Virus record (IMG/VR): IMGVR_UViG_3300012016_000001 | Span: 1 to 64,000 of that record | Length of the DNA stretch: 64,000 bases | Strand: one strand, 5' to 3' | Source: a virus | Taxonomy: Duplodnaviria > Heunggongvirae > Uroviricota > Caudoviricetes | In this document: one piece after another, positions 3,179-53,649 of the stretch | How the letters are laid out: each line of letters opens with the position of its first letter | Position numbering within the stretch: the stretch's first letter is position 1 | Position numbers and translations under genes: made by a program | Notes under the pieces: model-generated | Database searches by the model: none | The model's input: the letters and a program-made list of their open reading frames with translations, nothing else | What the model was told of the DNA's origin: nothing

Positions 3179-3210
3179 ATTAGACGAATTAAAGTAAAAA
3201 ATAAGTGAAA

Positions 3211-3834
3211 ATGAAGAAATTTTTAGTACTCATGTTTGCCTTACTAATGGCTATTAGTTTTTAGAGTTGCACCAACTGTAGTGGTAATCCCAGTCTAAAC
3301 AGTCCTGTTAAAACTGAACTTGTAGTGGATCAAGCTATTAGCTTAGATAACTAGTACATGTTCATGAATTATGGTGAGAACTATCGTTGGTTTGAAACTT
3401 GCGTTCTTATGGACGATTTCCTAGATGAGGAAACTGATGGAAGTGTTAATATGGTTGTTAATATCTATCAGGTTGCAAAAGGTGATGATAAATCTTTCGA
3501 TGTTAAAGTATTCAAGTTTCAACACTTAAAAGATGGAACTGTTTTGAAAGATTCTGTTGCTGGTTTTTGGATAGAAGATAATCCTTTGAATGATTCAACT
3601 ATAAAGATTGATTACAAGGAAGCCTTTAATCTTGTTCAAAAGGTAAATCTACCTAAACCACATACTAGAAATGCTATTCTAAGGAATCCTCTTGGTCCTC
3701 TAGACACTAATCCACAGTGGGTGTTCGGAAATATCCGTGAACAAATATGGGTGGATGCAACCACAGGAGAAATTAGAAAATCAAATCCAGCATTTCCTGA
3801 TGAATTAAAAATGCCTCTTGGTGAATGGCCCTGA
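3211..3834 (+). CDS. putative lipoprotein containing two in-frame TAG codons (3262-3264 and 3352-3354)
   Basis: ATG at 3211 encodes MKKFLVLMFALLMAISF-TAG-SC, a signal peptide plus Cys. It is in frame with track ORF 3358-3834, and the only interruptions are two TAGs. Confidence 0.55.
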
Positions 3835-4685: not shown

Positions 4686-4713
4686 AGTGTCTGGTTCGTG
4701 AGAATAGGACACT
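4686..4713 (+). ncRNA. conserved-loop hairpin H1 (loop TGGTTCGTGAGAATAG), 9 nt upstream of a tRNA
   Basis: Stem AGTGTC/GACACT. The loop is shared with H2-H4 while the stems differ. Confidence 0.5.
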
Positions 4714-4721
4714 TTTTACAT

Positions 4722-5116: not shown

Positions 5117-5205
5117 GCCCTCATCGTATATCGGTCAGTGCTGGAAACAGACGATTACCCCTGCCTTTTAAGCAGGTAAGCATGGTTCGACTCCATGTGG
5201 GGGCA
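5117..5205 (+). tRNA. tRNA-Lys(TTT) with about 17-nt expansion of the D-arm (89 nt)
   Basis: Acceptor GCCCTCA/TGGGGGC, anticodon arm CCTGC-CTTTTAA-GCAGG, T-arm CATGG-TTCGACT-CCATG. The D region is GTA-T-ATCG...CTG-GAAA-CAG...CGAT-TAC, an extended helix carrying a GAAA-capped hairpin. Confidence 0.6.
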
Positions 5206-5244
5206 CTATAAAAATCAAGACAATAAAAGTAGTTTTTAAGAAAT

Positions 5245-5376
5245 AAAGAAGTCTTACAGCAATAACAATTAATCTAAGTTTACCAAAAAGCGCTGAACTT
5301 GTAGTTCAATGGTAGAATACCTTTTTATTAAAAAGGAGATGACGGTTCGAATCCGTGTGGCAAAAAAGACTTCTTT
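5245..5376 (+). ncRNA. CAGCAA-box element, copy E4, enclosing a tRNA-like core without a conventional acceptor stem
   Basis: AAAGAAGTCTT (5245-5255) pairs with AAGACTTCTTT (5366-5376). CAGCAA at 5257-5262. Inside are a D-arm GTTC-AATGGTA-GAAT, the hairpin CCTTT-TTATTAA-AAAGG, and a T-arm ACGG-TTCGAAT-CCGT. Confidence 0.5.
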
Positions 5377-5634: not shown

Positions 5635-5709
5635 GGGGCAGTAGCGCAGGTGGTCAGTTCGCGCCAGTCTGAAAAACTGGAGATCGTGGTTCAACTCCAC
5701 GCTGCCCCA
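5635..5709 (+). tRNA. tRNA-Phe(GAA)
   Basis: Acceptor GGGGCAG/CTGCCCC, D-stem GCGC/GCGC, anticodon arm CCAGT-CTGAAAA-ACTGG, T-arm CGTGG-TTCAACT-CCACG. Confidence 0.85.
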
Positions 5710-5729
5710 CAGAATAGTATATTACTATA

Positions 5730-5798
5730 AAGAGGGCTCACAGCAAATTCATTCTAATTTTTTTCGCCATTATAAGTTTGATTAGCTAAAGCCCTCTT
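5730..5798 (+). ncRNA. CAGCAA-box long-range-helix element, copy E5
   Basis: AAGAGGGCT (5730-5738) pairs with AGCCCTCTT (5790-5798). CAGCAA at 5741-5746. Confidence 0.5.
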
Positions 5799-5805
5799 AA
5801 ATATA

Positions 5806-5869
5806 CAGGGTACAGACAGCAAACTTTATTTTAGGTTCGAACTTTTAACTCGATGTGTCTAGTACCCTG
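5806..5869 (+). ncRNA. CAGCAA-box long-range-helix element, copy E6
   Basis: CAGGGTAC (5806-5813) pairs with GTACCCTG (5862-5869), extended by AGAC/GTCT across a 1-nt bulge. CAGCAA at 5817-5822. Confidence 0.5.
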
Positions 5870-5874
5870 CCTAT

Positions 5875-5947
5875 AAAGGAGTCCTACAGCAAATTTGTCT
5901 TACATTCCGAATTGTCATTTCAGAAGAAAAAGAAAATGGACTCCTTT
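5875..5947 (+). ncRNA. CAGCAA-box long-range-helix element, copy E7
   Basis: AAAGGAGTCC (5875-5884) pairs with GGACTCCTTT (5938-5947). CAGCAA at 5887-5892. Confidence 0.55.
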
Positions 5948-5979
5948 TTAAATGAATAACCAATTATAAAATATATTAA

Positions 5980-6043
5980 GGAGGGCATGCAGCAAAAAGT
6001 TTGTAAATAGCGTGTCTGTGTAACATACTTAACAGTGCCCTCC
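5980..6043 (+). ncRNA. CAGCAA-box long-range-helix element, copy E8
   Basis: GGAGGGCA (5980-5987) pairs with TGCCCTCC (6036-6043). CAGCAA at 5990-5995. Confidence 0.5.
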
Positions 6044-6081
6044 GTTTTTATGAAAATGTTTTAACTATTTAAATAGTAACT

Positions 6082-6876
6082 ATGCAAAAATTAAATGTTT
6101 TATTAGCTCTTAGAGAGAAGTTAGCTAATCGTTATGCCCAAATGAACGGTGACTATACTTCATTCTTTAAGAACAAGCAAGGAGCGTTTCAAGGTACGCT
6201 CAAGACACACTCTCCTTTAGATGGGTATGCAGTAGATTCTACTAAAGTAGCTAATGTGAGAGTTATTACCACAGTCAATGAAAAAATGGATTGGTGGTTG
6301 AAAGAAGCTCTAGACTATTTTAACACAGCTTTGGCTATTGAAGCATCTAATGGGCAAGGTGCTCCTACAGTTGAACTAGAATTCGATGGAAGAACTTACG
6401 GTCCTTTCCCAGCTACTGTGTTATTAAGGCTTCGTGGCATTATAGAGAACGATAAGTTCGCTACAATGCTTGGTAATATTCCTGTTAGAGAGGAGACCAA
6501 AGTTTGGTTGCCTATTGATCAGGATGAAGATTACAAGAGAAGAGGTAATATCTTCCAAACAGAAAGACAAGAAGGTGAGACTCGTACTACAGAAACACAT
6601 GATGAAATCTTGAAAGATCCTAACTTAGATCCAGCTCATCTTCCTTCTAATTACCGTGCTCAAGTAACTCAAGTTAAGAGAACAGTTAAGACTGGAGATT
6701 ATACTACTCAGTCATTTACTGGTGAATGGACACATCAGCAACGTGCTAATCTTTTAAAAAGAAGAAGTGCATTGCTCGATGCTATCAATGTTGCCTTACA
6801 AAAAGTCAATGACCGTGAGGCAATTGAGTGTAAAGTAGATGATCTATTCAGACATCTCATTTATGGACAAAATTAA
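6082..6876 (+). CDS. hypothetical protein embedded in the tRNA array
   Basis: 264-aa ORF with no recognised motif. Confidence 0.55.
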   Translation: MQKLNVLLALREKLANRYAQMNGDYTSFFKNKQGAFQGTLKTHSPLDGYAVDSTKVANVRVITTVNEKMDWWLKEALDYFNTALAIEASNGQGAPTVELEFDGRTYGPFPATVLLRLRGIIENDKFATMLGNIPVREETKVWLPIDQDEDYKRRGNIFQTERQEGETRTTETHDEILKDPNLDPAHLPSNYRAQVTQVKRTVKTGDYTTQSFTGEWTHQQRANLLKRRSALLDAINVALQKVNDREAIECKVDDLFRHLIYGQN

Positions 6877-7010
6877 ACTTTAAATATTGACCCTAGCTTT
6901 AGCTTCACACTTTAGCTTTACAGAATCCTAGATAGTAAGCATCAATGTTGTGGTCAAAAGCTTTAGCGAAGTTGATTACAGTGTATTACTTACCTTGACG
7001 ACTATTATCG

Positions 7011-7154
7011 CTCGGTAATCGCGGGTTCAAATCCCGTCCCGCCCTCAAACAGAGTTCTTCTGAACTCTGCCCTTTCATGTTACTTTAGTCATTGCTTGTG
7101 AAAGTAGTGACTATATGGGCGGGTCGTCTAGTGGTTAAGACTCCGGGTTTTTAA
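7011..7154 (+). tRNA. circularly permuted tRNA-Lys(UUU)-like gene: 3' half (7011-7045) lies upstream of the 5' half (7117-7154)
   Basis: The 3' half is CTCGG-TAATC-GCGGG-TTCAAAT-CCCGT-CCCGCCC-T. The 5' half is GGGCGGG-TC-GTCT-AGTGGTTA-AGAC-T-CCGGG-TTTTTAA. Acceptor and anticodon stems are complementary only between the two halves. Neither half has a partner in the normal gene order. Confidence 0.55.
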
Positions 7155-7228
7155 GCATCAGCATTATAGGGTAAAATGTAATACGCAAAAGTTCATGGAT
7201 TAGTAAGACGGATTTGTCGCTAATCCTA

Positions 7229-7301
7229 GGGAGAGTAGCTCAGTGGTTAAAGCAATAGTCGCTAAAACTATCGATCGAGGGTTCGAATCCCTCCTCTCCT
7301 G
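7229..7301 (+). tRNA. amber-suppressor tRNA, anticodon CTA (reads UAG), with G at position 33
   Basis: A 73-nt canonical cloverleaf: acceptor GGGAGAG/CTCTCCT, anticodon arm ATAGT-CGCTAAA-ACTAT, T-arm GAGGG-TTCGAAT-CCCTC. Confidence 0.75.
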
Positions 7302-7364
7302 CTTATGTTACCATATTATATTATTTTTTCGTTAGTATCTGTCTGTGAAGATCGATACTAAGTC

Positions 7365-7459
7365 AGCGGGTTATGCAAATGGTAAAGCAGTAGTTTATCT
7401 ATGTGAGTACGTATAGTTCTAGGCCAGTACTCTTGGGAGTTCGAGTCTCTCACCCGCTA
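7365..7459 (+). tRNA. 95-nt tRNA-like gene, anticodon undetermined
   Basis: Perfect acceptor AGCGGGT/ACCCGCT, D-arm TGC-AAATGGTAAA-GCA, T-arm GGGAG-TTCGAGT-CTCTC. The 44-nt central region has no canonical 5-7-5 anticodon arm. Its best helices are GAGTAC/GTACTC and CTATG-(8 nt)-TATAG. Confidence 0.4.
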
Positions 7460-7498
7460 CAAATTAATTTAAAACAAATTGGGTAAAAAATAACCTAT

Positions 7499-7646
7499 AA
7501 AGGAGACGAACAGCAATTTCAACGTTTTGCATTTTGGTTGCCGAAGTTAGGGTTCGAATCCCTAGTCCTCCCTAATGGGAGGATTAGTGTAACTGGTAAG
7601 TGTGAAGTTAAGCACACGATAGCACGCGTTTTTGTTGGTCTCCTTT
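7499..7646 (+). ncRNA. CAGCAA-box element, copy E9, enclosing tRNA-Ser-like pieces in permuted order
   Basis: AAAGGAGAC (7499-7507) pairs with GTCTCCTTT (7638-7646). CAGCAA at 7511-7516. Inside, the T-arm TAGGG-TTCGAAT-CCCTA and GTCCTCC are followed after 6 nt by GGAGGAT, the same acceptor as the tRNA-Ser at 7851. Confidence 0.45.
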
Positions 7647-7850
7647 TAAAATATTTTCCCTCTTAAAGGTTTTGCTAGGAATCTAGCTTATCAGGGTATG
7701 CTCTAAGCTCTTAGTTACGGTGCACACGTTCTGAGTTTGAGTAGTGTATTATAAGTTCACCCATAACTGCAGATAAAAGTGAATGAAATTTACACGTCCT
7801 TAGGATTACTAAGAGGGATAAGGGAGAGATTTATTAATCTCTCCCCGAAT

Positions 7851-9841: not shown

Positions 9842-9879
9842 GGGGATAGGGTAAATGTTTACCCTTCCCCTATAATTTT
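9842..9879 (+). terminator. terminator-like hairpin
   Basis: GGGGATAGGGTAA pairs with TTACCCTTCCCC (one bulge), followed by tataatttt. Confidence 0.45.
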
Positions 9880-9886
9880 CTTAATA

Positions 9887-10696
9887 ATGTTAAATTTTGG
9901 TTTAAAACATTGTCATTCTTCTAATTGGCACAAGAAGTTTCCAAGAAAGAAGATTGAACATGAGGACCCAAAGCATCTAGGGATGCATCAACACCTTAGA
10001 CTACGTAATGAGTGGTTTGAGGGAAGACAAGGTTTTCTTTCCATTAAAGAGATTCGTAAGTTCTTGGAAGCAAATCTTGGTAAGAATGTAGATGAAGTAT
10101 TCTCTGAATTTGTTAAACGTGCTAAAAGATATAAGCATGATGTTAGTCTTAGAGAAAGATTCTTTGCACAGTTAGACCCAGACACTAGGTATGGTTCTGG
10201 TTATACTTTAGATATACAAAACAAAATAGTAAAGGTTAAAGAAATTAAAGTTCACAGGATACGTGACAACGAAGCTCGTGTATTTAATGAAGTAGCTTAT
10301 CCTTATAATATTAATCAGTATTTAAGAGAAACGGAACTTACTTATATAGGAGATTTTTATCTAAGAACTAGACATTGGAATTGGGTAAAAGCACCTGTGT
10401 ATGTATGTAGTAAGGAATGGTATAACTTAGTACTGACATATGGAGTAGGCAAGAAATATACTAAAATGAATGAAATGCAAAGGATACATATATTCTTTAA
10501 TAAGTATATTGCTGTAGGAGTTCCAAAGAAAGGATATGCTACTCGTGCTGAACCTACTGGTAATACTATATGTATCTGTAATCACGAAATGCGAGAGTAT
10601 AAACACGTTAAGTATCCATATACAACAATGGATTGCGAGTCTGATTATATCTTCCTTACTAAGGGAGGAGAAGATACTAATTGGTACGTATATTAA
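9887..10696 (+). CDS. hypothetical protein
   Basis: 269-aa ORF. Confidence 0.55.
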   Translation: MLNFGLKHCHSSNWHKKFPRKKIEHEDPKHLGMHQHLRLRNEWFEGRQGFLSIKEIRKFLEANLGKNVDEVFSEFVKRAKRYKHDVSLRERFFAQLDPDTRYGSGYTLDIQNKIVKVKEIKVHRIRDNEARVFNEVAYPYNINQYLRETELTYIGDFYLRTRHWNWVKAPVYVCSKEWYNLVLTYGVGKKYTKMNEMQRIHIFFNKYIAVGVPKKGYATRAEPTGNTICICNHEMREYKHVKYPYTTMDCESDYIFLTKGGEDTNWYVY

Positions 10697-10704
10697 ATAG
10701 ATTA

Positions 10705-11063
10705 GGGCCTGACCGGATTTGACGGCTTCTGAAGGTAAATCACTCACTCATGACTGATGGAAAGACATCAAAAAAATTAAACGGAGAAAATAACACAACT
10801 CCCCGCGCTAAAGTTGTTAGCATCGTTTATAGAGCTGCAGCTTGATCGACGCCTGGTAAAAGGGTAACCAAGGAACATAATACCCTTAATTTCTTTATTT
10901 TTAGCCAATAATATTCTGCGCCTATCGGAGATATAACTAAATAGGCTGGTGGAAAGTCAGACAACAGTCTGCCCCAGAGAAGGAAACTCTTATAAAACCT
11001 ATGAGTGTAAGAATGTGATGAGAATAGGATTCGCGGACGAGGGTTCGACTCCCTCCAGGTCCA
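10705..11063 (+). ncRNA. ssrA: tmRNA (SsrA), one-piece
   Basis: The 5' end GGGCCTGACCGGATTTGACGG and the 3' end GGACGAGGGTTCGACTCCCTCCAGGTCCA closely resemble bacterial tmRNA termini. Acceptor GGGCCTG/CAGGTCC has a G3:U70 pair. Internal tag ORF at 10783-10845. Confidence 0.88.
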
Positions 11064-11317
11064 CTTGTTAAATAATGTTAAATTTATTGTGGATTTATAT
11101 TGTTATTTATATATTTAATCCTGTAAAAACGTTCATTATAGTAAAGATAAAATGTTCCAGCACTCACGGCTACAAACTGAGTGACTAGTGTTCAACAAGA
11201 GCGCAGTATTACTATCACAGCTGAACTATAGAGGCAGTGAAGACTTTATGGTCGAACTGAGGGCAGTTTAGTCTGGAACAATCTAAGCTGTTCTCTTTAC
11301 TTGTGAAATTCATAAAT

Positions 11318-11345
11318 ACCTTTCGGTTCGTGAGAATAGAAAGGT
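11318..11345 (+). ncRNA. conserved-loop hairpin H2 (loop GGTTCGTGAGAATA), 4 nt upstream of a tRNA
   Basis: Stem ACCTTTC/GAAAGGT. The loop core is identical to H1. Confidence 0.5.
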
Positions 11346-11348
11346 TAT

Positions 11349-11979: not shown

Positions 11980-12183
11980 ATGAAAGAAAGAATAAGAAAG
12001 ATTATTGAAAGAATTACTGAACGTAAAATTACAAATGATGATGAGCCTATAGAGATGGATAGTATAGACACTATGGAAGTTATAGTAAGTCTAGAGTATG
12101 AATATGACATCCATATAGATACTATTATAAAGGAGGATTTATCATTAAATGATTACGTTGAGTTAGTTAGGAGCATGGTGTAA
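11980..12183 (+). CDS. acyl carrier protein-like small protein
   Basis: 67 aa with EMDSIDTMEVIVSLEYEY, which matches the ACP DSLD phosphopantetheine-site helix. The track ORF N-terminus overlaps tRNA-His. Confidence 0.55.
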   Translation: MKERIRKIIERITERKITNDDEPIEMDSIDTMEVIVSLEYEYDIHIDTIIKEDLSLNDYVELVRSMV

Positions 12184-12252
12184 TGGTAGCACATCTGACT
12201 TTGACTCAGAAGGGAGCGTGAGCCACTGCAGGTTCGAGTCCTGCTGCTCCTA
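12169..12252 (+). tRNA. tRNA-Gln(TTG) with a 17-nt variable region; overlaps the last 15 nt of the ACP-like CDS
   Basis: Acceptor AGGAGCA/TGCTCCT, anticodon arm TCTGA-CTTTGAC-TCAGA, variable region AGGGAGCGTGAGCCACT (GC-GTGA-GC mini-hairpin), T-arm GCAGG-TTCGAGT-CCTGC. Confidence 0.7.
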
Positions 12253-12290
12253 CTTGTCTCCATTAAGGAGAATTTTAAAGGTGTTTGTTC

Positions 12291-12325: not shown

Positions 12326-12410
12326 GCTGCGTTCGACTAGTGGCTTAGGTCACAAGACTTTCAATCTTGTAGGATGAAAATCCTCAGGGGTTCGAATCCC
12401 CTACGCAGTA
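12326..12410 (+). tRNA. tRNA-Glu(TTC) with a 16-nt variable arm
   Basis: Acceptor GCTGCGT/ACGCAGT, anticodon arm CAAGA-CTTTCAA-TCTTG, variable arm T-AGGAT-GAAA-ATCCT-C, T-arm AGGGG-TTCGAAT-CCCCT. Confidence 0.75.
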
Positions 12411-12414
12411 CTAA

Positions 12415-47002: not shown

Positions 47003-47503
47003 TTGAATATGCTAGACATTGATAACATACATGTTGATTTAGATATAGTATTATCTAAAAAGACTACATTAAAGCAGTTACTTAATCCAACTGAGTTAGC
47101 TTCTTTAAAGTCTAAAGCTATTAAAAACCACTATGATGATGCAGCCATAATGGAAGCAGCTCATAGGCTTATTAAAGAGAACATTGCAGATTACTTAGAT
47201 AATTCTGATTTTCTTGATGCTAATGTAATATTAGAAACAGACCCTTATATAATTAAGGCTATGGAACTAATGCAAGCTAGTCAACGAGACGCTGGAATAT
47301 TACTTGTAGAAAAAGAGTATAAATATCCGGGATGTTGGGTAAATGATATAGCTAATGCATTAAGAGAACTTAAATGTAGTAGTGATATGTATAACACATT
47401 GGTATGGGATGCTTATTATGTACATAATTATACTAATAATGAAAATATCCCGGGATGGAAAAACCTTCAAGATGTGTTAGAAGATTACTATGACACACTA
47501 TGA
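47003..47503 (+). CDS. hypothetical protein
   Basis: 166-aa ORF (TTG start or ATG at 47009). Confidence 0.5.
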   Translation: MNMLDIDNIHVDLDIVLSKKTTLKQLLNPTELASLKSKAIKNHYDDAAIMEAAHRLIKENIADYLDNSDFLDANVILETDPYIIKAMELMQASQRDAGILLVEKEYKYPGCWVNDIANALRELKCSSDMYNTLVWDAYYVHNYTNNENIPGWKNLQDVLEDYYDTL

Positions 47504-48708
47504 CATTAGTTACTAGAGACAGTAAAGGTAAAATCAGAGTCGTTGATATATGGACGAATCACGACTCTGATTCCTCTACTATATGTAGAGAGACTTACCA
47601 ATATCTAGGAAAACATACAAGACAACCTGATATTGTAATAGAAGCTGGAAAAGCTGGGCGTGATATTGCAGCACAATGTGAATTACAATTTATGTCTCAG
47701 TTAAAAAGTTATAAAGATAAAGGTTATAAAGAATTAGAAAAAGACATATCTAAGTATACAGAAAAAGAACTAAATGAAATAGTTGGAGATACTATTACTA
47801 ATCAGCATGGTGTACAAAAACCCATGTTAGCTAAGCAAGCTGACAAAGTGTCTCAAAAGGCTATTGATAAAGTTCCTTACTGGTACGCGAGCAGAAAAAT
47901 AGATGGAGTACGCTGTTCTTTCTATTTAGATGGGGATACTATAAGAACATCTAGTAGAGGAGGAGAGGACTACGATTGTGCTTGTATGCACTTTATAAAT
48001 AATGAAAAATTAAAGAAATTCTATGAAAGGCATCCTGGAATAGTCTTAGATGGTGAACTATATAAACACGGACGGAGCCTTCAACAAATCTCAGGCGCTG
48101 CAAGACTTGAAAAGAATGCTGTAGACTGTGACTGGCTAGAATATTATATTTATGACATCGTAGACACTAACAGAACGTTTGAAGAAAGACTTAAAGTGTT
48201 GGCTGCAATTAAATATGAACTTGGACTCGGATTCAATCCAGAAAGAGAATGGAAAGAAGGAGAACTACAGTTCCAAATGGTTCCACAACAAAAGGTGTCT
48301 GGCTTCAAGAATATAAATATACTTCACGATATTTATGTATCAGAAGGATGGGAAGGAGTCGTTATCAGAGACCCATCTAAAGTGTATAGACCTAATGGGC
48401 GTACCAATGATATGATAAAATTTAAGAAGTATAAAGATGCAGAATTTTTAGTTATAGATTATGAACTAGGTCTTAGAGGTACTGAAGATATGACCTTTAC
48501 TTGTACTACTCCTGCTGGACTAGAGTTTAAGGCTAAGCCTTGGGGAGATAGAGCTATTAAAGAGGAATATGTAAAGAACTTTAAAACTAAGTATCAATAT
48601 AAGTTAGCAAAGATTAAGTTTTTCTATTATTCTAACGGAAATAATGAAAAGACTGGAGTTCCACTTCAACCATCACTTATATGTTTCCGTGATAAATCTG
48701 ATATGTAA
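47500..48708 (+). CDS. ATP-dependent DNA ligase
   Basis: Nucleotidyltransferase motifs: I SRKIDGVRC, III LDGELY, IV EGVVIRD, V MIKFKKYKD. Confidence 0.7.
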   Translation: MTLVTRDSKGKIRVVDIWTNHDSDSSTICRETYQYLGKHTRQPDIVIEAGKAGRDIAAQCELQFMSQLKSYKDKGYKELEKDISKYTEKELNEIVGDTITNQHGVQKPMLAKQADKVSQKAIDKVPYWYASRKIDGVRCSFYLDGDTIRTSSRGGEDYDCACMHFINNEKLKKFYERHPGIVLDGELYKHGRSLQQISGAARLEKNAVDCDWLEYYIYDIVDTNRTFEERLKVLAAIKYELGLGFNPEREWKEGELQFQMVPQQKVSGFKNINILHDIYVSEGWEGVVIRDPSKVYRPNGRTNDMIKFKKYKDAEFLVIDYELGLRGTEDMTFTCTTPAGLEFKAKPWGDRAIKEEYVKNFKTKYQYKLAKIKFFYYSNGNNEKTGVPLQPSLICFRDKSDM

Positions 48709-52584: not shown

Positions 52585-52760
52585 CCTACAGAGTTCATTG
52601 TCACGAGCTAGTCTGGATGAACACTATATATGAAGTAGAAGCAGATTCTCCAGAAGATATAGAAGATATAATACTCTCAGGAGAGGCAAACGAAGTTCAA
52701 GCAGATTTTGATTGTTTAGATCAATGTGATATAGAAAGTATAATACCTATTGATGAATAA
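52581..52760 (+). CDS. small acidic protein (59 aa)
   Basis: ATGA overlap. Fills the gap between track ORFs. Confidence 0.3.
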   Translation: MTYRVHCHELVWMNTIYEVEADSPEDIEDIILSGEANEVQADFDCLDQCDIESIIPIDE

Positions 52761-53649
52761 AATTATATTATGTCAAGGCATTCAAGGCTCAGGTAAATCT
52801 ACCTGGGCCAAAGCCTGGGCTAAGGAAAACCCAGAGCATAGAGTAAGACTCAATTATGATGACCTACGTAACATGTTAGGAGTTTATTGGGTACCATCTA
52901 GGGAAGATATGCTTAAAGCTATAGAAGAAGCCTTTCTTACTAAGGCTGCAACAAAGAATTGGGATATTGTTATAGATAATATGAACTTGAATCCAAAAAC
53001 TATTGCTAAATATGAGGAATGGGCAGCAGTTAATGGTTATCAACTTGAAAAGGTTCTATTTGATACTCCAGTAGAAGAATGTATAAGAAGAGATGCTATG
53101 CGCCCTAATCCTATTGGTGAAGTAGTTATCAAACGTACTTGGAATACCTATAGAAACTATATAATACAAGAGAGTATTAAAAAGATGAAAGAAAGAGAAC
53201 TTAAACAAGATCCTAATCTTCCACACTGTATTCTTGTAGATATGGATGCTACTCTCTTTTTAAATACTAGTGGGCGTCCTTTTTATGGAGATAATTTGGA
53301 ACCTACTGATATATTAAAAGATGAACCTATTCCAGGTACTATAGCCTTAGTAAAGGCTTATCAAGCTAGTGGTAATCTAGTATTTGGATTAAGTGGGCGC
53401 GAAGATATACAAGGTATTCGTTTGAACACTGAAAAACAATGTGCTAACCAAGGAATATATCTTGATAAATTATTCTTACGTCCAAAAGGTTCTCGTAAAA
53501 AGGGAGACGAGCAAAAGAAAGAACTATTTGAAAAATACATTAAAGGGCAGTTTTATGTAGACTTTGTTCTTGAGGATTCTTCTAAAGTAGTTAAAATGTA
53601 TAGAGATTTAGGACTTACTGTTCTACAACCAAATGAAGGAAAGTTCTAA
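52753..53649 (+). CDS. polynucleotide 5'-kinase/3'-phosphatase (T4 Pnkp-like)
   Basis: N-terminal IILCQGIQGSGKSTWAKAW closely matches the T4 Pnk P-loop. C-terminal HAD motif LVDMDATL. Confidence 0.8.
   Translation: MNKIILCQGIQGSGKSTWAKAWAKENPEHRVRLNYDDLRNMLGVYWVPSREDMLKAIEEAFLTKAATKNWDIVIDNMNLNPKTIAKYEEWAAVNGYQLEKVLFDTPVEECIRRDAMRPNPIGEVVIKRTWNTYRNYIIQESIKKMKERELKQDPNLPHCILVDMDATLFLNTSGRPFYGDNLEPTDILKDEPIPGTIALVKAYQASGNLVFGLSGREDIQGIRLNTEKQCANQGIYLDKLFLRPKGSRKKGDEQKKELFEKYIKGQFYVDFVLEDSSKVVKMYRDLGLTVLQPNEGKF

Follow-up and report, generated by a model that had tools for sequence, protein, structure and literature searches.

A 95-nt gene of the tRNA family lies at positions 7365-7459 (+ strand) of a 64,000-nt stretch of phage DNA, referred to below as the window. 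It is a genuine gene that is conserved in phages. Its membership in the tRNA family is confirmed, and so is the absence of a canonical anticodon arm, which had been pointed out in an earlier reading made from the sequence alone. At the site of a long variable arm, the gene carries a helix with the loop UUCUAGG, which contains the amber anticodon CUA. It is tentatively interpreted as the gene of an unconventional, UAG-directed tRNA of the putative amber-suppressor type. Comparison with relatives leaves this interpretation somewhat short of an even chance, and a non-decoding role is a serious rival.

The sequence read back from the window is the one that the sequence-only reading had given. The Rfam tRNA model (RF00005) matches the gene at 33.0 bits (E = 6.6e-5 in a 901-nt search). 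The gathering score of this model is 29, and the match appears only with relaxed filters; the gene is absent from the default Rfam gathering run. ARAGORN at default settings makes no call at 7365-7459, with or without introns. A covariance model built solely from relatives of 76-80 nt, of which the window sequence is not a part, scores the window copy at 56.5 bits (E about 1e-14). Syntenic homologues are found in many phage contigs, and no open reading frame of at least 60 amino acids overlaps the gene.

A detectable amber suppressor tRNA occurs in only about 40% of TAG-recoded phage genomes, and the missing suppressors have been suggested to have non-canonical structures (bioRxiv 10.1101/2021.08.26.457843; PMC7886860). 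Suppressors of this kind that escape detection have also been predicted (bioRxiv 10.1101/2021.08.26.457843; PMC7886860; PMC12386605). The 95-nt gene provides a concrete case of a conserved CUA-loop tRNA that goes undetected by default tools. Its family can now be searched for with a covariance model or a simple motif, so that the question can be tested across genomes.

Several parts of a cloverleaf are present: a 7-bp acceptor stem with discriminator base, a D arm with G18G19, and a T arm (Table 1). The acceptor pairing AGCGGGT/ACCCGCT described in the sequence-only reading forms at all 7 positions, and the 3-bp D stem with a GG loop is likewise as described. The T arm, which had been called perfect, is present but consists of four Watson-Crick pairs and one G.U pair. 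Across the family, the acceptor stem is canonical in 175 of 182 cells, with 2-5 pair types per position, and the T stem in 128 of 130. The D-arm pair 10-25 covaries (U-A, C-G or A-U). None of the 26 distinct family sequences lacks G26 or A73. Every family member has a T immediately 5' of the T stem, and A15 is conserved; U48 can presumably form a Levitt pair with A15, a tertiary contact expected from tRNAs in general.

Table 1. Positions of the parts of the 95-nt gene and of nearby or related features (window coordinates unless a contig is named).
Feature	Position	Strand	Remarks
Acceptor stem, 5' strand AGCGGGT	7365-7371	+	Pairs 7/7 with 7452-7458
D arm, stem TGC/GCA plus A.A layer	7374-7389	+	Strands 7374-7376 / 7387-7389
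D loop AATGGTAA	within 7374-7389	+	G18G19 at 7381-7382
G26	7390	+	Potential partner U7402 (position 44), enclosing the stub
Stub hairpin X, UAG-UUUAU-CUA	7391-7401	+	Anticodon-arm position; weak, 3 bp plus G26.U44
Linker UGU	7402-7404	+	Equivalent to positions 44-46
Arm Y, variable-arm position	7405-7432	+	6-bp stem GAGUAC/GUACUC, 7405-7410 / 7427-7432
Arm Y, irregular flanks	GUAUAG 7411-7416, CCA 7424-7426	+	
Anticodon-type loop UUCUAGG, 7 nt	7417-7423	+	U33-like U7418, CUA 7419-7421, purine G7422
UU	7433-7434	+	Equivalent to positions 47-48
T arm GGGAG-UUCGAGU-CUCUC	7435-7451	+	Loop TTCGAGT, of the GTTCRANYC type
Acceptor 3' strand ACCCGCU and discriminator A73	7452-7459 (A7459)	+	CCA not encoded
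Leader hairpin UUAGUAUC-UGUCUGUGAAGAU-CGAUACUAA	7333-7362	+	Ends 3 nt upstream of the 95-nt gene
Canonical-size tRNA, loop CGCUAAA (anticodon CUA, G33 not U33)	7229-7302	+	ARAGORN and Rfam, 60 bits
DUF7873 gene	6082-6876	+	Pfam PF25283, E = 1.7e-32
ATP-dependent ligase	47500-48705		In the window
Polynucleotide kinase-phosphatase	52753-53646		In the window
Canonical tRNA-Leu(UAG)	L217 5556-5639		3.3 kb upstream of the window start, same contig

Between positions 26 and 44, where a cloverleaf has a 5-bp stem and a 7-nt loop, the gene has a stub of 3 bp that closes a loop of 5 nt. The 44-nt centre (7391-7434) is as quoted in the sequence-only reading, and both of the helices proposed there exist. 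It was parsed by comparison with about 30 distinct relatives from contigs of zeta crAss-like phages, some of which were found without sequence bias. Covariation was counted on a manual parse; the covariance-model alignment of the long types placed insertions inconsistently. In the resulting order, G26 is followed by the stub, UGU, the Y helix with its loop, and UU.

The conserved helix of the two is GAGTAC/GTACTC, with its 16-nt loop that includes CTA. The other, CTATG-TGAGTACG-TATAG, exists in the window but has not been kept in L194, the closest relative. Between the window copy and this relative the Y stem has changed in a compensatory way, from GAGTAC/GTACTC to GGATAC/GTATTC, and the acceptor stem shows compensatory changes too. 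The Y stem is also present in the minimum free energy fold of the window copy. An alignment with orthologs, proposed earlier as a check, shows that the centre is not freely diverging: the Y stem is canonical in all 123 cells, with four pair types per position, and its loop is conserved.

The loop is closed by the pair G7416-C7424; next to it come an A.C layer, then a U-A pair, then a bulge of 3 nt (GUA). Of 15 distinct types, 11 form the closing pair (binomial P = 0.005), which switches between close relatives from A-U to G-C and from A-U to G.U. The CUA arm varies in length across the family from 6 to 9 or more layers, always with non-Watson-Crick layers or a bulge. The conserved loop has 7 nucleotides, and the 8-nt loop of an expanded-loop decoder, which had been offered as an option, is not present.

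The loop reads TTCTAGG in all members that were found independently of the motif. These are the window copy, three relatives found via the neighbouring protein (L001-L003), and three found via distant DUF7873 homologues (L388, L391, L392). In two further relatives (L383 and L384) it reads TTCTAGT. No TCA, TTA or CCA version of the loop was found on the family scaffold, nor any other YYA anticodon.

The hairpins homologous to the stub have 5-7 bp and are canonical in 50 of 50 cells, with compensatory changes (CAATC/GATTG, CAGTC/GACTG, CAGCC/GGTTG, CCCTT/AAGGG); their loop sequences show no conservation across the family. In the window copy and all relatives of 92-104 nt, the pair G26.U44 surrounds the stub, and the CUA arm has UG(U) before it and (A)UU after it, like a variable arm. 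For the long type, RNAalifold joins G26 to the U that comes after the stub in 5 of 7 sequences. The relatives of 76-80 nt have no stub; their CUA arm comes immediately after G26, where a canonical anticodon arm would be, and ARAGORN calls these genes tRNA(cta). Together, the linker UGU and the 3' UU make UGUUU, which is also the variable loop, 5 nt long, that the short relatives have. Judged by these comparisons, the stub is a decayed anticodon arm.

The excess length of the gene is located in the centre, which would also suit a tRNA with a small intron. Removal of part of the 44-nt centre after transcription would leave a canonical 5-bp, 7-nt arm, and the phage's own polynucleotide kinase-phosphatase and ATP-dependent ligase, both encoded in the window, might be the agents. 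Zeta phages are rich in introns (PMC7886860). This explanation is very improbable. The extra nucleotides are spread over three sites, namely either flank of the conserved loop and a hairpin apart from it, so that no single excision suffices, and removal of stub and linker leaves a variable loop of 2 nt. A bulge-helix-bulge cannot be drawn; a second bulge to match the single one of 3 nt is missing. Covariation of the stub stems shows that they function as RNA helices. ARAGORN, run with intron options as had been advised, yields only parses at lowered threshold, one of which would splice out the invariant TTCTAGG, with 'ATC', which is not conserved, as the remaining anticodon. The two parses from the intron and low-threshold modes are mutually inconsistent, and both were rejected on conservation.

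The distant relatives are type II tRNAs with D arms of the Leu type (GGTAGAC). Two of them (L383 and L384) bear the TTCTAG loop on the variable arm and have a complete 5-bp, 7-nt anticodon arm of their own. In its best-paired reading this arm presents CU-UUA-GA and CU-UCA-GA, respectively. These are stop-type anticodons, and they tie the lineage to stop codons. The best reading of these comparisons is that the 95-nt element is a functional gene of a phage-specific lineage, which occurs in zeta crAss-like phages and was derived from a type II, Leu-like tRNA.

Type II tRNAs comprise those for Leu, Ser and bacterial Tyr. Leu-derived amber suppressors, including E. coli supP/su6, are among them, and LeuRS does not read the anticodon. 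The 95-nt gene resembles type II tRNAs in its extra helix between positions 45 and 48, A73, A14/A15 and U48. It differs from them in that its variable arm bears an anticodon-type loop and its anticodon arm is a stub of 3-5 bp with a loop of 4-6 nt, with no working anticodon arm bearing a Leu, Ser or Tyr sense anticodon. To our knowledge, no other type II tRNA has this combination.

The suggestion of a highly aberrant type II tRNA was therefore close as to architecture, the CUA arm being at the site of the long variable arm, but the gene is not the missing tRNA-Leu. A tRNA that decodes Leu and makes up for its absence from the array is hardly credible, even though it would account for the type II-like architecture, A73 and A15/U48, as well as for the Leu-type D arms of the distant relatives. 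Within one phage, a tRNA-Leu(UAA) is also what the family model matches best outside the family. However, the 5-nt stub loop UUUAU is unconserved, no Leu anticodon is present, and the conserved loop reads CUA. The observation that the array lacks a Leu tRNA holds for the 64-kb window, but the same contig has a canonical tRNA-Leu(UAG) upstream.

Exact-match scans of viral contigs with the 5' half and the 3' half of the gene gave no matches; the relatives were reached via the neighbouring protein and degenerate motifs. BLAST against the GenBank phages of INPHARED, with the 95-nt gene and an 80-nt relative as queries, found no homologues, and the lineage lies outside that collection. The family motif has 0 matches in 185,579 bacterial and archaeal species genomes, so that, as far as shown, the gene is not host-derived. 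The matches listed for a scan with the D arm alone were chance matches and uninformative. The nearest non-family matches of the family model are Pro, Leu, Arg and Lys tRNAs, with no consistent isotype.

Evidence for recoding of TAG in the phage comes from two genes that lie a short way upstream of the window start on its source contig (ENA ERZ28656410 scaffold_8; L217 4227-5546 and 5645-7117). They contain 10 and 9 in-frame TAGs, 19 in all. At two conserved sites, the TAG columns correspond to Gln in 14 of 15 and 15 of 15 homologues. On this alignment the phage reads TAG as glutamine, and it needs UAG decoding. Within the window, the open reading frame at 3205-3834 contains an in-frame TAG that is preceded by a signal peptide. 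TAG accounts for only 6 of 61 stops. A heuristic for TAG-rich open reading frames found none within the window and none in the loci of relatives, which span at most 14 kb around the tRNA block and are too short to judge recoding.

The phage has a second CUA tRNA, at 7229-7302. Its orthologue in four relatives (L194, L001, L156, L157) has the loop CGCCAAA (anticodon CCA), and the CUA of the window copy is thus a recent C-to-U change. E. coli tRNA-Trp(CUA), known as su7, is charged with Gln. The tRNA at 7229-7302 could be the real TAG-to-Gln decoder, which counts against the 95-nt gene in that role.

If the 95-nt RNA decodes UAG, it might do so as follows. Its acceptor, D arm, T arm, G26 and A73 are normal, and the gene would be expected to be transcribed in the tRNA array and its product handled like a tRNA, presumably with processing by RNase P and RNase Z and then CCA addition. 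The original anticodon arm has decayed to the stub. The conserved working end is the UUCUAGG loop, which obeys the whole grammar of an anticodon loop (U33, CUA, purine 37, closing pair) and is carried by an irregular arm with a 6-bp stem and further layers. This loop would pair with UAG, and the RNA would serve as an amber-suppressor-type adaptor that supplies or supplements UAG read-through together with the CUA tRNA at 7229-7302. The loop might reach the decoding centre if the stub swung outwards and the long arm came to stack beneath the D stem.

Phage amber suppressor tRNAs with the anticodon CUA are known from TAG-recoded (code 15) crAss-like and other gut phages (PMC7886860; bioRxiv 10.1101/2021.08.26.457843; PMC9523058). 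Like them, the 95-nt gene stands in the early tRNA block, and its crAss-like phage reads TAG as Gln, with TAG as a sense codon in the genome. As in these suppressors, CUA is placed in a 7-nt loop with U33 and purine 37, here closed by G7416-C7424. Unlike theirs, its CUA arm is irregular, over-long and displaced beside a stub, its body is type II and Leu-like rather than Gln-like, and default finders miss it. The loop lies in the variable-arm position on 9 or more layers, and its distance and orientation from the acceptor end are not the canonical ones. With the arm in this position and G26.U44 around the stub, the geometry is wrong for a conventional decoder.

An anticodon stem of 5 bp is the rule, and 6 bp occur in tRNA-Sec, tRNA-Pyl and mt-tRNA-Ser(UCN). 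These tRNAs, which read stops or derive from reading them, share a stem longer than 5 bp with the 95-nt gene. The gene differs from them by its 7/5 acceptor/T arrangement, its normal GG D loop and T loop, the lack of a compact core, and an arm that is far longer and interrupted. We know of no decoding tRNA whose arm ranges from 6 to 9 or more layers. Another non-standard anticodon-stem architecture alongside stop-codon reassignment is found in the tRNA-Trp(CCA) with a 4-bp stem, which reads UGA (PMC13092985 and work cited there). That tRNA is otherwise canonical, with one top pair unpaired, whereas the stem of the 95-nt gene is longer, irregular and displaced.

It is rather unlikely, though conceivable, that a loop matching a stop codon has moved in this lineage from the anticodon arm to the variable arm. 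The distant relatives would then be 'two-headed', with a UUA or UCA anticodon arm and a CUA loop on the variable arm; the window copy would retain the former as a stub, and the shortest relatives would have lost it. If the loop was relocated, the ribosome may be served by an anticodon in the variable-arm position via helix swapping at the core. Alternatively, the RNA may be a tRNA-shaped riboregulator that recognises UAG or CUAG, with the DUF7873 / Ro60-like / Y-RNA-like module.

A decayed anticodon arm together with a loop of anticodon grammar on a helix in the variable-arm position is unusual for tRNA biology. If the RNA decodes, the rules of anticodon presentation need widening. The gene might further serve genetic-code engineering as a naturally orthogonal scaffold. 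If the RNA has no decoding function, it would represent a new class of tRNA mimic tied to a phage Ro60-like / Y-RNA-like module.

In such a non-decoding RNA, which is a quite possible but less probable reading, the tRNA-like body would serve processing, stability or protein recruitment, and UUCUAGG would be a recognition element. The loop could be a putative protein-binding site in the DUF7873 / Ro60-like / Y-RNA-like module. It could also be a putative partner in RNA-RNA kissing. The CUAG core is palindromic, and UCUAGG can pair with itself over 6 positions; in addition, UUCUAGG could pair, two of the pairs being G.U, with the entire anticodon loop CUUAGGA of the tRNA-Leu(UAG).

Linkage to DUF7873 is tight and deep. 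In 75 of 81 family loci, its gene lies 370-700 nt upstream on the same strand, down to a protein identity of 33%, and this favours a non-decoding role. The DUF7873 gene is in turn found beside Ro60-like DUF2828+DUF7788 genes in distant loci, starting 2 nt after one of them in L388 and lying 1.5 kb upstream of another in L383. Permuted, YrlA-like tRNA mimics stand on both sides of the 95-nt gene in the window. However, a fold search with the predicted DUF7873 model gave no informative match, and the protein link is as yet without mechanistic content.

YrlA-type bacterial Y RNAs are tRNA mimics bound by Ro60/Rsr (PMC4201824; RF02553). The 95-nt gene has similar tRNA-like modules (D arm, T arm and acceptor), lies next to Ro60-like genes, and is flanked by YrlA-like permuted units. 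Unlike YrlA, it is unpermuted, its ends forming an acceptor stem, and it is without a long Ro-binding stem. The Rfam YrlA model (RF02553) has no match to it at E <= 10.

The position of the CUA arm at the variable-arm site, its variable length and the dispensable anticodon arm also suit a non-decoding RNA. So do the missing features of tRNA-Gln identity: A73 and G37 are common to the 95-nt RNA and the tRNA-Gln of these phages, but the U1-A72 and G10 of the latter are absent. The loop of the phages' own tRNA-Gln is TTTTGGT. TAG makes up 22-27% of stops in the loci with the 92-94-nt type, and zeta genomes have been described that carry CTA tRNAs without visible recoding (PMC12386605). Together, these two facts argue against efficient general suppression, and the common use of TAG as a stop fits a non-decoding RNA.

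Several observations favour the UAG-directed tRNA instead. The loop has full anticodon-loop grammar, and its triplet is the amber anticodon in a phage that recodes TAG. The arm of the short relatives is in the true anticodon position, and the two-armed relatives present stop-type anticodons. The acceptor, A73 and the T arm are strictly selected, which a mere scaffold would not obviously need.

The gene might also be a decaying relic, that is, a former suppressor made redundant when the tRNA at 7229-7302 changed from CCA to CUA, and now a pseudogene in the making. The stub has 3 bp here as against 5 bp in four relatives (L194, L021, L097, L392), this lineage alone has a second CUA tRNA, and both ARAGORN and default Rfam miss the gene. 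Such decay is improbable. The acceptor (7/7), Y stem (6/6), T arm, D arm and 7-nt loop are all intact, and the stub loop is unconstrained in every lineage anyway. A pseudogene, as had been suggested, does not fit the covariation either, the acceptor and Y-stem differences from the closest relative being compensatory. The conserved leader hairpin is also kept. Its loop motif occurs on differing stems directly 5' of the family gene in four relatives (L021, L097, L187, L163), and the variant GGTTCGTGAGAATAG is found at the same place in two others (L002, L158).

The 95-nt tRNA-like gene (the element) is present in the region's sequence exactly as the sequence-only reading had described it. Its acceptor stem AGCGGGT/ACCCGCT pairs at 7/7 positions, as claimed, with discriminator A, and its central region is indeed 44 nt long. 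The D arm consists of a TGC/GCA stem and the loop AATGGTAA. The T arm GGGAG-TTCGAGT-CTCTC is also in place, but it is not perfect, since it contains one G.U pair. ARAGORN reports 22 tRNAs and a tmRNA in the window, and the element (7365-7459) is not among them. Rfam at the gathering threshold with default filters does not find it either. With relaxed filters, the Rfam tRNA model gives 33.0 bits (gathering score 29), in an alignment that forces a 27-nt insertion into the anticodon arm. No ORF of at least 60 aa overlaps the element, and its MFE fold retains the acceptor stem, the T arm and the GAGUAC/GUACUC helix.

Relatives can be found through the neighbouring DUF7873 protein, which led to three syntenic loci. 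At the corresponding position, all three carry a tRNA-like gene (77-102 nt) that contains TTCTAGG; scanning viral and metagenome contigs for motifs then yielded 26 distinct members of the family. Common to all 26 are a 7-bp acceptor stem with A73, a D arm matching YGCR-AA(N)TGGTAW-AGCR, G26, a standard T arm, and a 4-6-bp Watson-Crick stem around the 7-nt loop TTCTAGG (the CUA arm). Stem and loop are separated by 1-6 and 1-3 nt, mostly unpaired. Across the family, 123/123 cells of this stem are canonical, and each position shows four pair types. In 11/15 distinct types (P = 0.005) a pair closes the 7-nt loop; it changes from A-U to G-C (L021 vs L187) or to G.U (among 80-nt members). In L194 (100 nt), the closest relative, GGATAC/GTATTC stands in place of GAGTAC/GTACTC, and the acceptor stem has three compensatory changes. 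Thus, of the two helices proposed for the centre, GAGTAC/GTACTC is the conserved one; the hairpin CTATG...TATAG is not conserved and was rejected. A covariance model built exclusively on 76-80-nt members scores the window copy at 56.5 bits.

Members of 92-104 nt carry an additional hairpin directly 3' of G26. Its stem covaries (CAATC/GATTG, CAGTC/GACTG, CAGCC/GGTTG, CCCTT/AAGGG; 50/50 cells canonical) around an unconserved loop of 4-10 nt; the window version, UAG-UUUAU-CUA, is weak. The hairpin is followed by UG, UGU or UGG and then by the CUA arm, with just 2-3 nt left up to the T stem. For both the window and L194, the two linkers combined read UGU+UU, equal to the UGUUU variable loop of short members, and RNAalifold pairs G26 with the U just 3' of the extra hairpin. 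Ordinary tRNA cores follow rules involving a 26.44 pair and positions 45 and 48. By these rules, the G26-U pairing and the linkers place the extra hairpin in the anticodon-arm position and the CUA arm in that of a long variable arm. ARAGORN parses L021 and L097 in the same way, as 'tRNA-???'. In the short 76-80-nt types the CUA arm lies directly 3' of G26, and ARAGORN calls tRNA(cta).

Because motif scans presuppose TTCTAGG, regions downstream of distant DUF7873 homologues (40-49% identity) were examined without any RNA criterion. Family members turned up in L388, L391 and L392; they are 97-104 nt long and have TTCTAGG on their second arm. The genes in L383 (121 nt) and L384 (123 nt) are type II tRNAs: both combine a Leu-type D arm (GGTAGAC and GGTAAAC) with a complete 5-bp/7-nt anticodon arm, and their large variable region includes a hairpin whose loop is UAUUCUAGUCA; the MFE fold of L383 shows this six-arm structure. 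Read in the best-paired register, the anticodon loops of L383 and L384 are CU-UUA-GA and CU-UCA-GA, with ochre- and opal-type anticodons, in the same CU-NNN-GA frame as the tRNA-Leu(UAG) genes of these phages. Shifting the register, at the cost of a C.C mismatch, would give Leu UAG and CAG instead. L390, L387 and L389 hold related long tRNA-like genes without CUA. Given these type II architectures and the members in L388, L391 and L392, the lineage seems to be that of a type II tRNA in which the variable arm gained an anticodon-type CUA loop. In the direction that we infer for the series, the anticodon arm would then have been reduced (window) and finally lost (76-80-nt types).

The source of the window is a wolf-gut metagenome scaffold of 193,962 bp; the related contigs, from IMG/VR and ENA, are 130-190 kb long. 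Contig size, tRNA block and weak DNA similarity to crAss-like phages agree with the 'zeta' group of these phages (PMC7886860, PMC12386605). TAG is recoded as Gln in this phage. Two genes of the source contig L217, 2-4.7 kb upstream of the window start, contain 10 and 9 in-frame TAGs. In the latter, a PF04765/PF01697 glycosyltransferase, homologues have Gln at the TAG columns, in 14/15 and 15/15 of them at the two conserved sites; some of these homologues are encoded on large bacterial contigs. The two genes flank a canonical tRNA-Leu(UAG), and therefore adjoin the 'early' tRNA block on the same strand. Early genes of the window rarely use TAG (6/61 stops), and in one window ORF an in-frame TAG lies downstream of a lipoprotein-type signal peptide.

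The element is probably a tRNA of suppressor type. Suppressor tRNAs of recoded crAss-like phages are already known (PMC7886860), and some have been proposed to escape detection through odd structure (PMC7886860; bioRxiv 10.1101/2021.08.26.457843). The element differs from a canonical tRNA or amber suppressor in anticodon-arm position and geometry. Literature searches found no description of this architecture, and the family was not found in GenBank phage records (BLAST) or in representative bacterial and archaeal genomes.

When the points for and against UAG decoding are weighed, an unconventional amber-suppressor-type tRNA ranks first, though tentatively. In favour of a UAG-directed adaptor are the anticodon grammar of the loop, the reading of TAG as Gln, and the two-armed relatives with stop-type anticodons in their best-paired register. 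The triplet is exclusively CUA; a scan found no TCA, TTA or CCA versions on the family scaffold. A73 and G37 are shared with the phages' tRNA-Gln genes, but U1-A72 and G10 are absent, which speaks against a conventional decoder. So do the variable-arm position of the CUA arm, its variable length and interruption, the use of TAG for 22-27% of stops in loci with the 92-94-nt type, and published zeta genomes with CTA tRNAs but no recoding (PMC12386605). A second CUA tRNA in the window, directly upstream, also counts against it; its orthologue in L194 and elsewhere reads CCA, so this CUA is a recent conversion. In E. coli, tRNA-Trp(CUA) is known to be glutaminylated. On these same points a non-decoding tRNA-like RNA using the CUAG loop ranks second, as a serious rival, with relic, intron and tRNA-Leu readings well behind.

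The element belongs to a conserved gene block. In 75/81 loci DUF7873 is found on the same strand, 370-700 nt upstream of the family gene; its AF2 model is confident (pLDDT 87), with long helices plus a beta-sheet, and structural comparison gave no informative match to a known fold. Between DUF7873 and the family gene is a circularly permuted, YrlA-like tRNA mimic. Such units run from T arm and acceptor 3' strand through a loop to acceptor 5' strand and D arm, enclosed by long stems resembling YrlA-type Y RNAs. Their acceptor strands covary (window CCCGCCC/GGGCGGG vs L194 CTCCCCC/GGGGGAG), the unit at 7497-7650 folds at -56.8 kcal/mol (z = -6.4), and L001 has an Rfam YrlA match of 45 bits, under the gathering score of 69. 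Ro60-like genes (DUF2828 plus vWA_Ro60/DUF7788; PHROG 850, 'RNA-binding protein'), split in two in this phage and fused in relatives, lie beside DUF7873 and the mimic block; the L388 copy ends 2 nt before DUF7873.

A repeated motif, (A)AAGGAG-N4-6-ACAGCAA, opens hairpin-enclosed non-coding units between tRNA genes, which may be further Y-RNA-like genes. In unit 7497-7650, CAGCAA pairs with a 3'-side UUGUUG, leaving a GAA bulge; unit 5250-5375 encloses a partial tRNA match. Several tRNA genes are preceded, at a distance of 3-6 nt, by leader hairpins whose loop is conserved (UGUCUGUGAAGAU or GGUUCGUGAGAAUAG) on variable stems; these may be processing or transcription signals.

Positions of features in the window and in other phage contigs (L numbers; L217 is the source contig)
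Feature	Window	Other contigs
Element	7365-7459 (+)	
DUF7873 gene	6082-6876 (+)	
TAG-recoded genes		L217 4227-5546 (10 TAGs), 5645-7117 (9 TAGs)
tRNA-Leu(UAG)		L217 5556-5639
U33-less neighbour	7229-7302	L001 7252-7323; L021 13036-13112; L003 7099-7172; L166 7374-7448; L005 1837-1910
Permuted tRNA-like units	~6900-7215, 7497-7650	L074 ~5990-6080; L097 ~9850-10050; L001 7681-7792
Ro60-like proteins	15-809 (ORF 90-806)	L217 7980-9239; L388 807-2498; L383 3264-3749
Motif-opened units	~2640, 5030, 5250, 5735, 5810, 5885, 5985, 7500	
Partial tRNA match	5302-5357	
Leader hairpins	7333-7362 (element), 4690-4715 (tRNA-Met 4722), 11322-11348 (tRNA-Pro 11349)	L002, L158, L163, L021, L097 (upstream of family gene)
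Expanded tRNAs	5117-5206, 12169-12253, 12326-12411	
Over-long or odd tRNA-like genes		L177 8218-8343; L158 4373-4496; L002 8600-8709, 11901-12053; L003 9914-10063
Further over-long or odd tRNA-like genes		L380; L338/L348/L358; L340/L347
tmRNA	10705-11064	
ATP-dependent DNA/RNA ligase	47500-48705	
Polynucleotide kinase-phosphatase (T4 Pnk-like)	52753-53646	

The block usually also includes a tRNA without the near-universal U33, directly upstream of the CUA-family gene in every lineage checked. Its loops are CG-CCA-AA (7 distinct sequences), CG-UUU-AA (8), CG-CUA-AA (window), CG-UGA-AA, and UA-AUU-AA or UA-ACU-AA; the anticodon varies while the odd frame is constant. G33 occurs in 17 of 326 distinct tRNAs of these loci, all with the four CG-type loops, and each one whose position was checked is the direct upstream neighbour of a CUA-family gene. 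By analogy with tRNAs proposed in PMC10264068, one possibility is that it resists anticodon nucleases.

Expanded tRNAs also occur elsewhere in the array. One gene of 90 nt, Val(gac) according to ARAGORN, is Lys(UUU) by its clean CCUGC-CUUUUAA-GCAGG arm; ~16 additional nt lie in its D region. The tRNA-Gln(UUG) and tRNA-Glu(UUC) have 17-nt variable arms, unusual for these isotypes. The phage tmRNA encodes the tag GENNTTPRAKVVSIVYRAAA, and the ligase and kinase-phosphatase together suggest an RNA-repair set. Related and unrelated phage contigs hold many further tRNA-like genes that are over-long or odd (100-153 nt): L380 presents CCA on a very long interrupted anticodon arm, and in L340 and L347 G26 is followed by a 4-bp stub whose loop is 2 nt.
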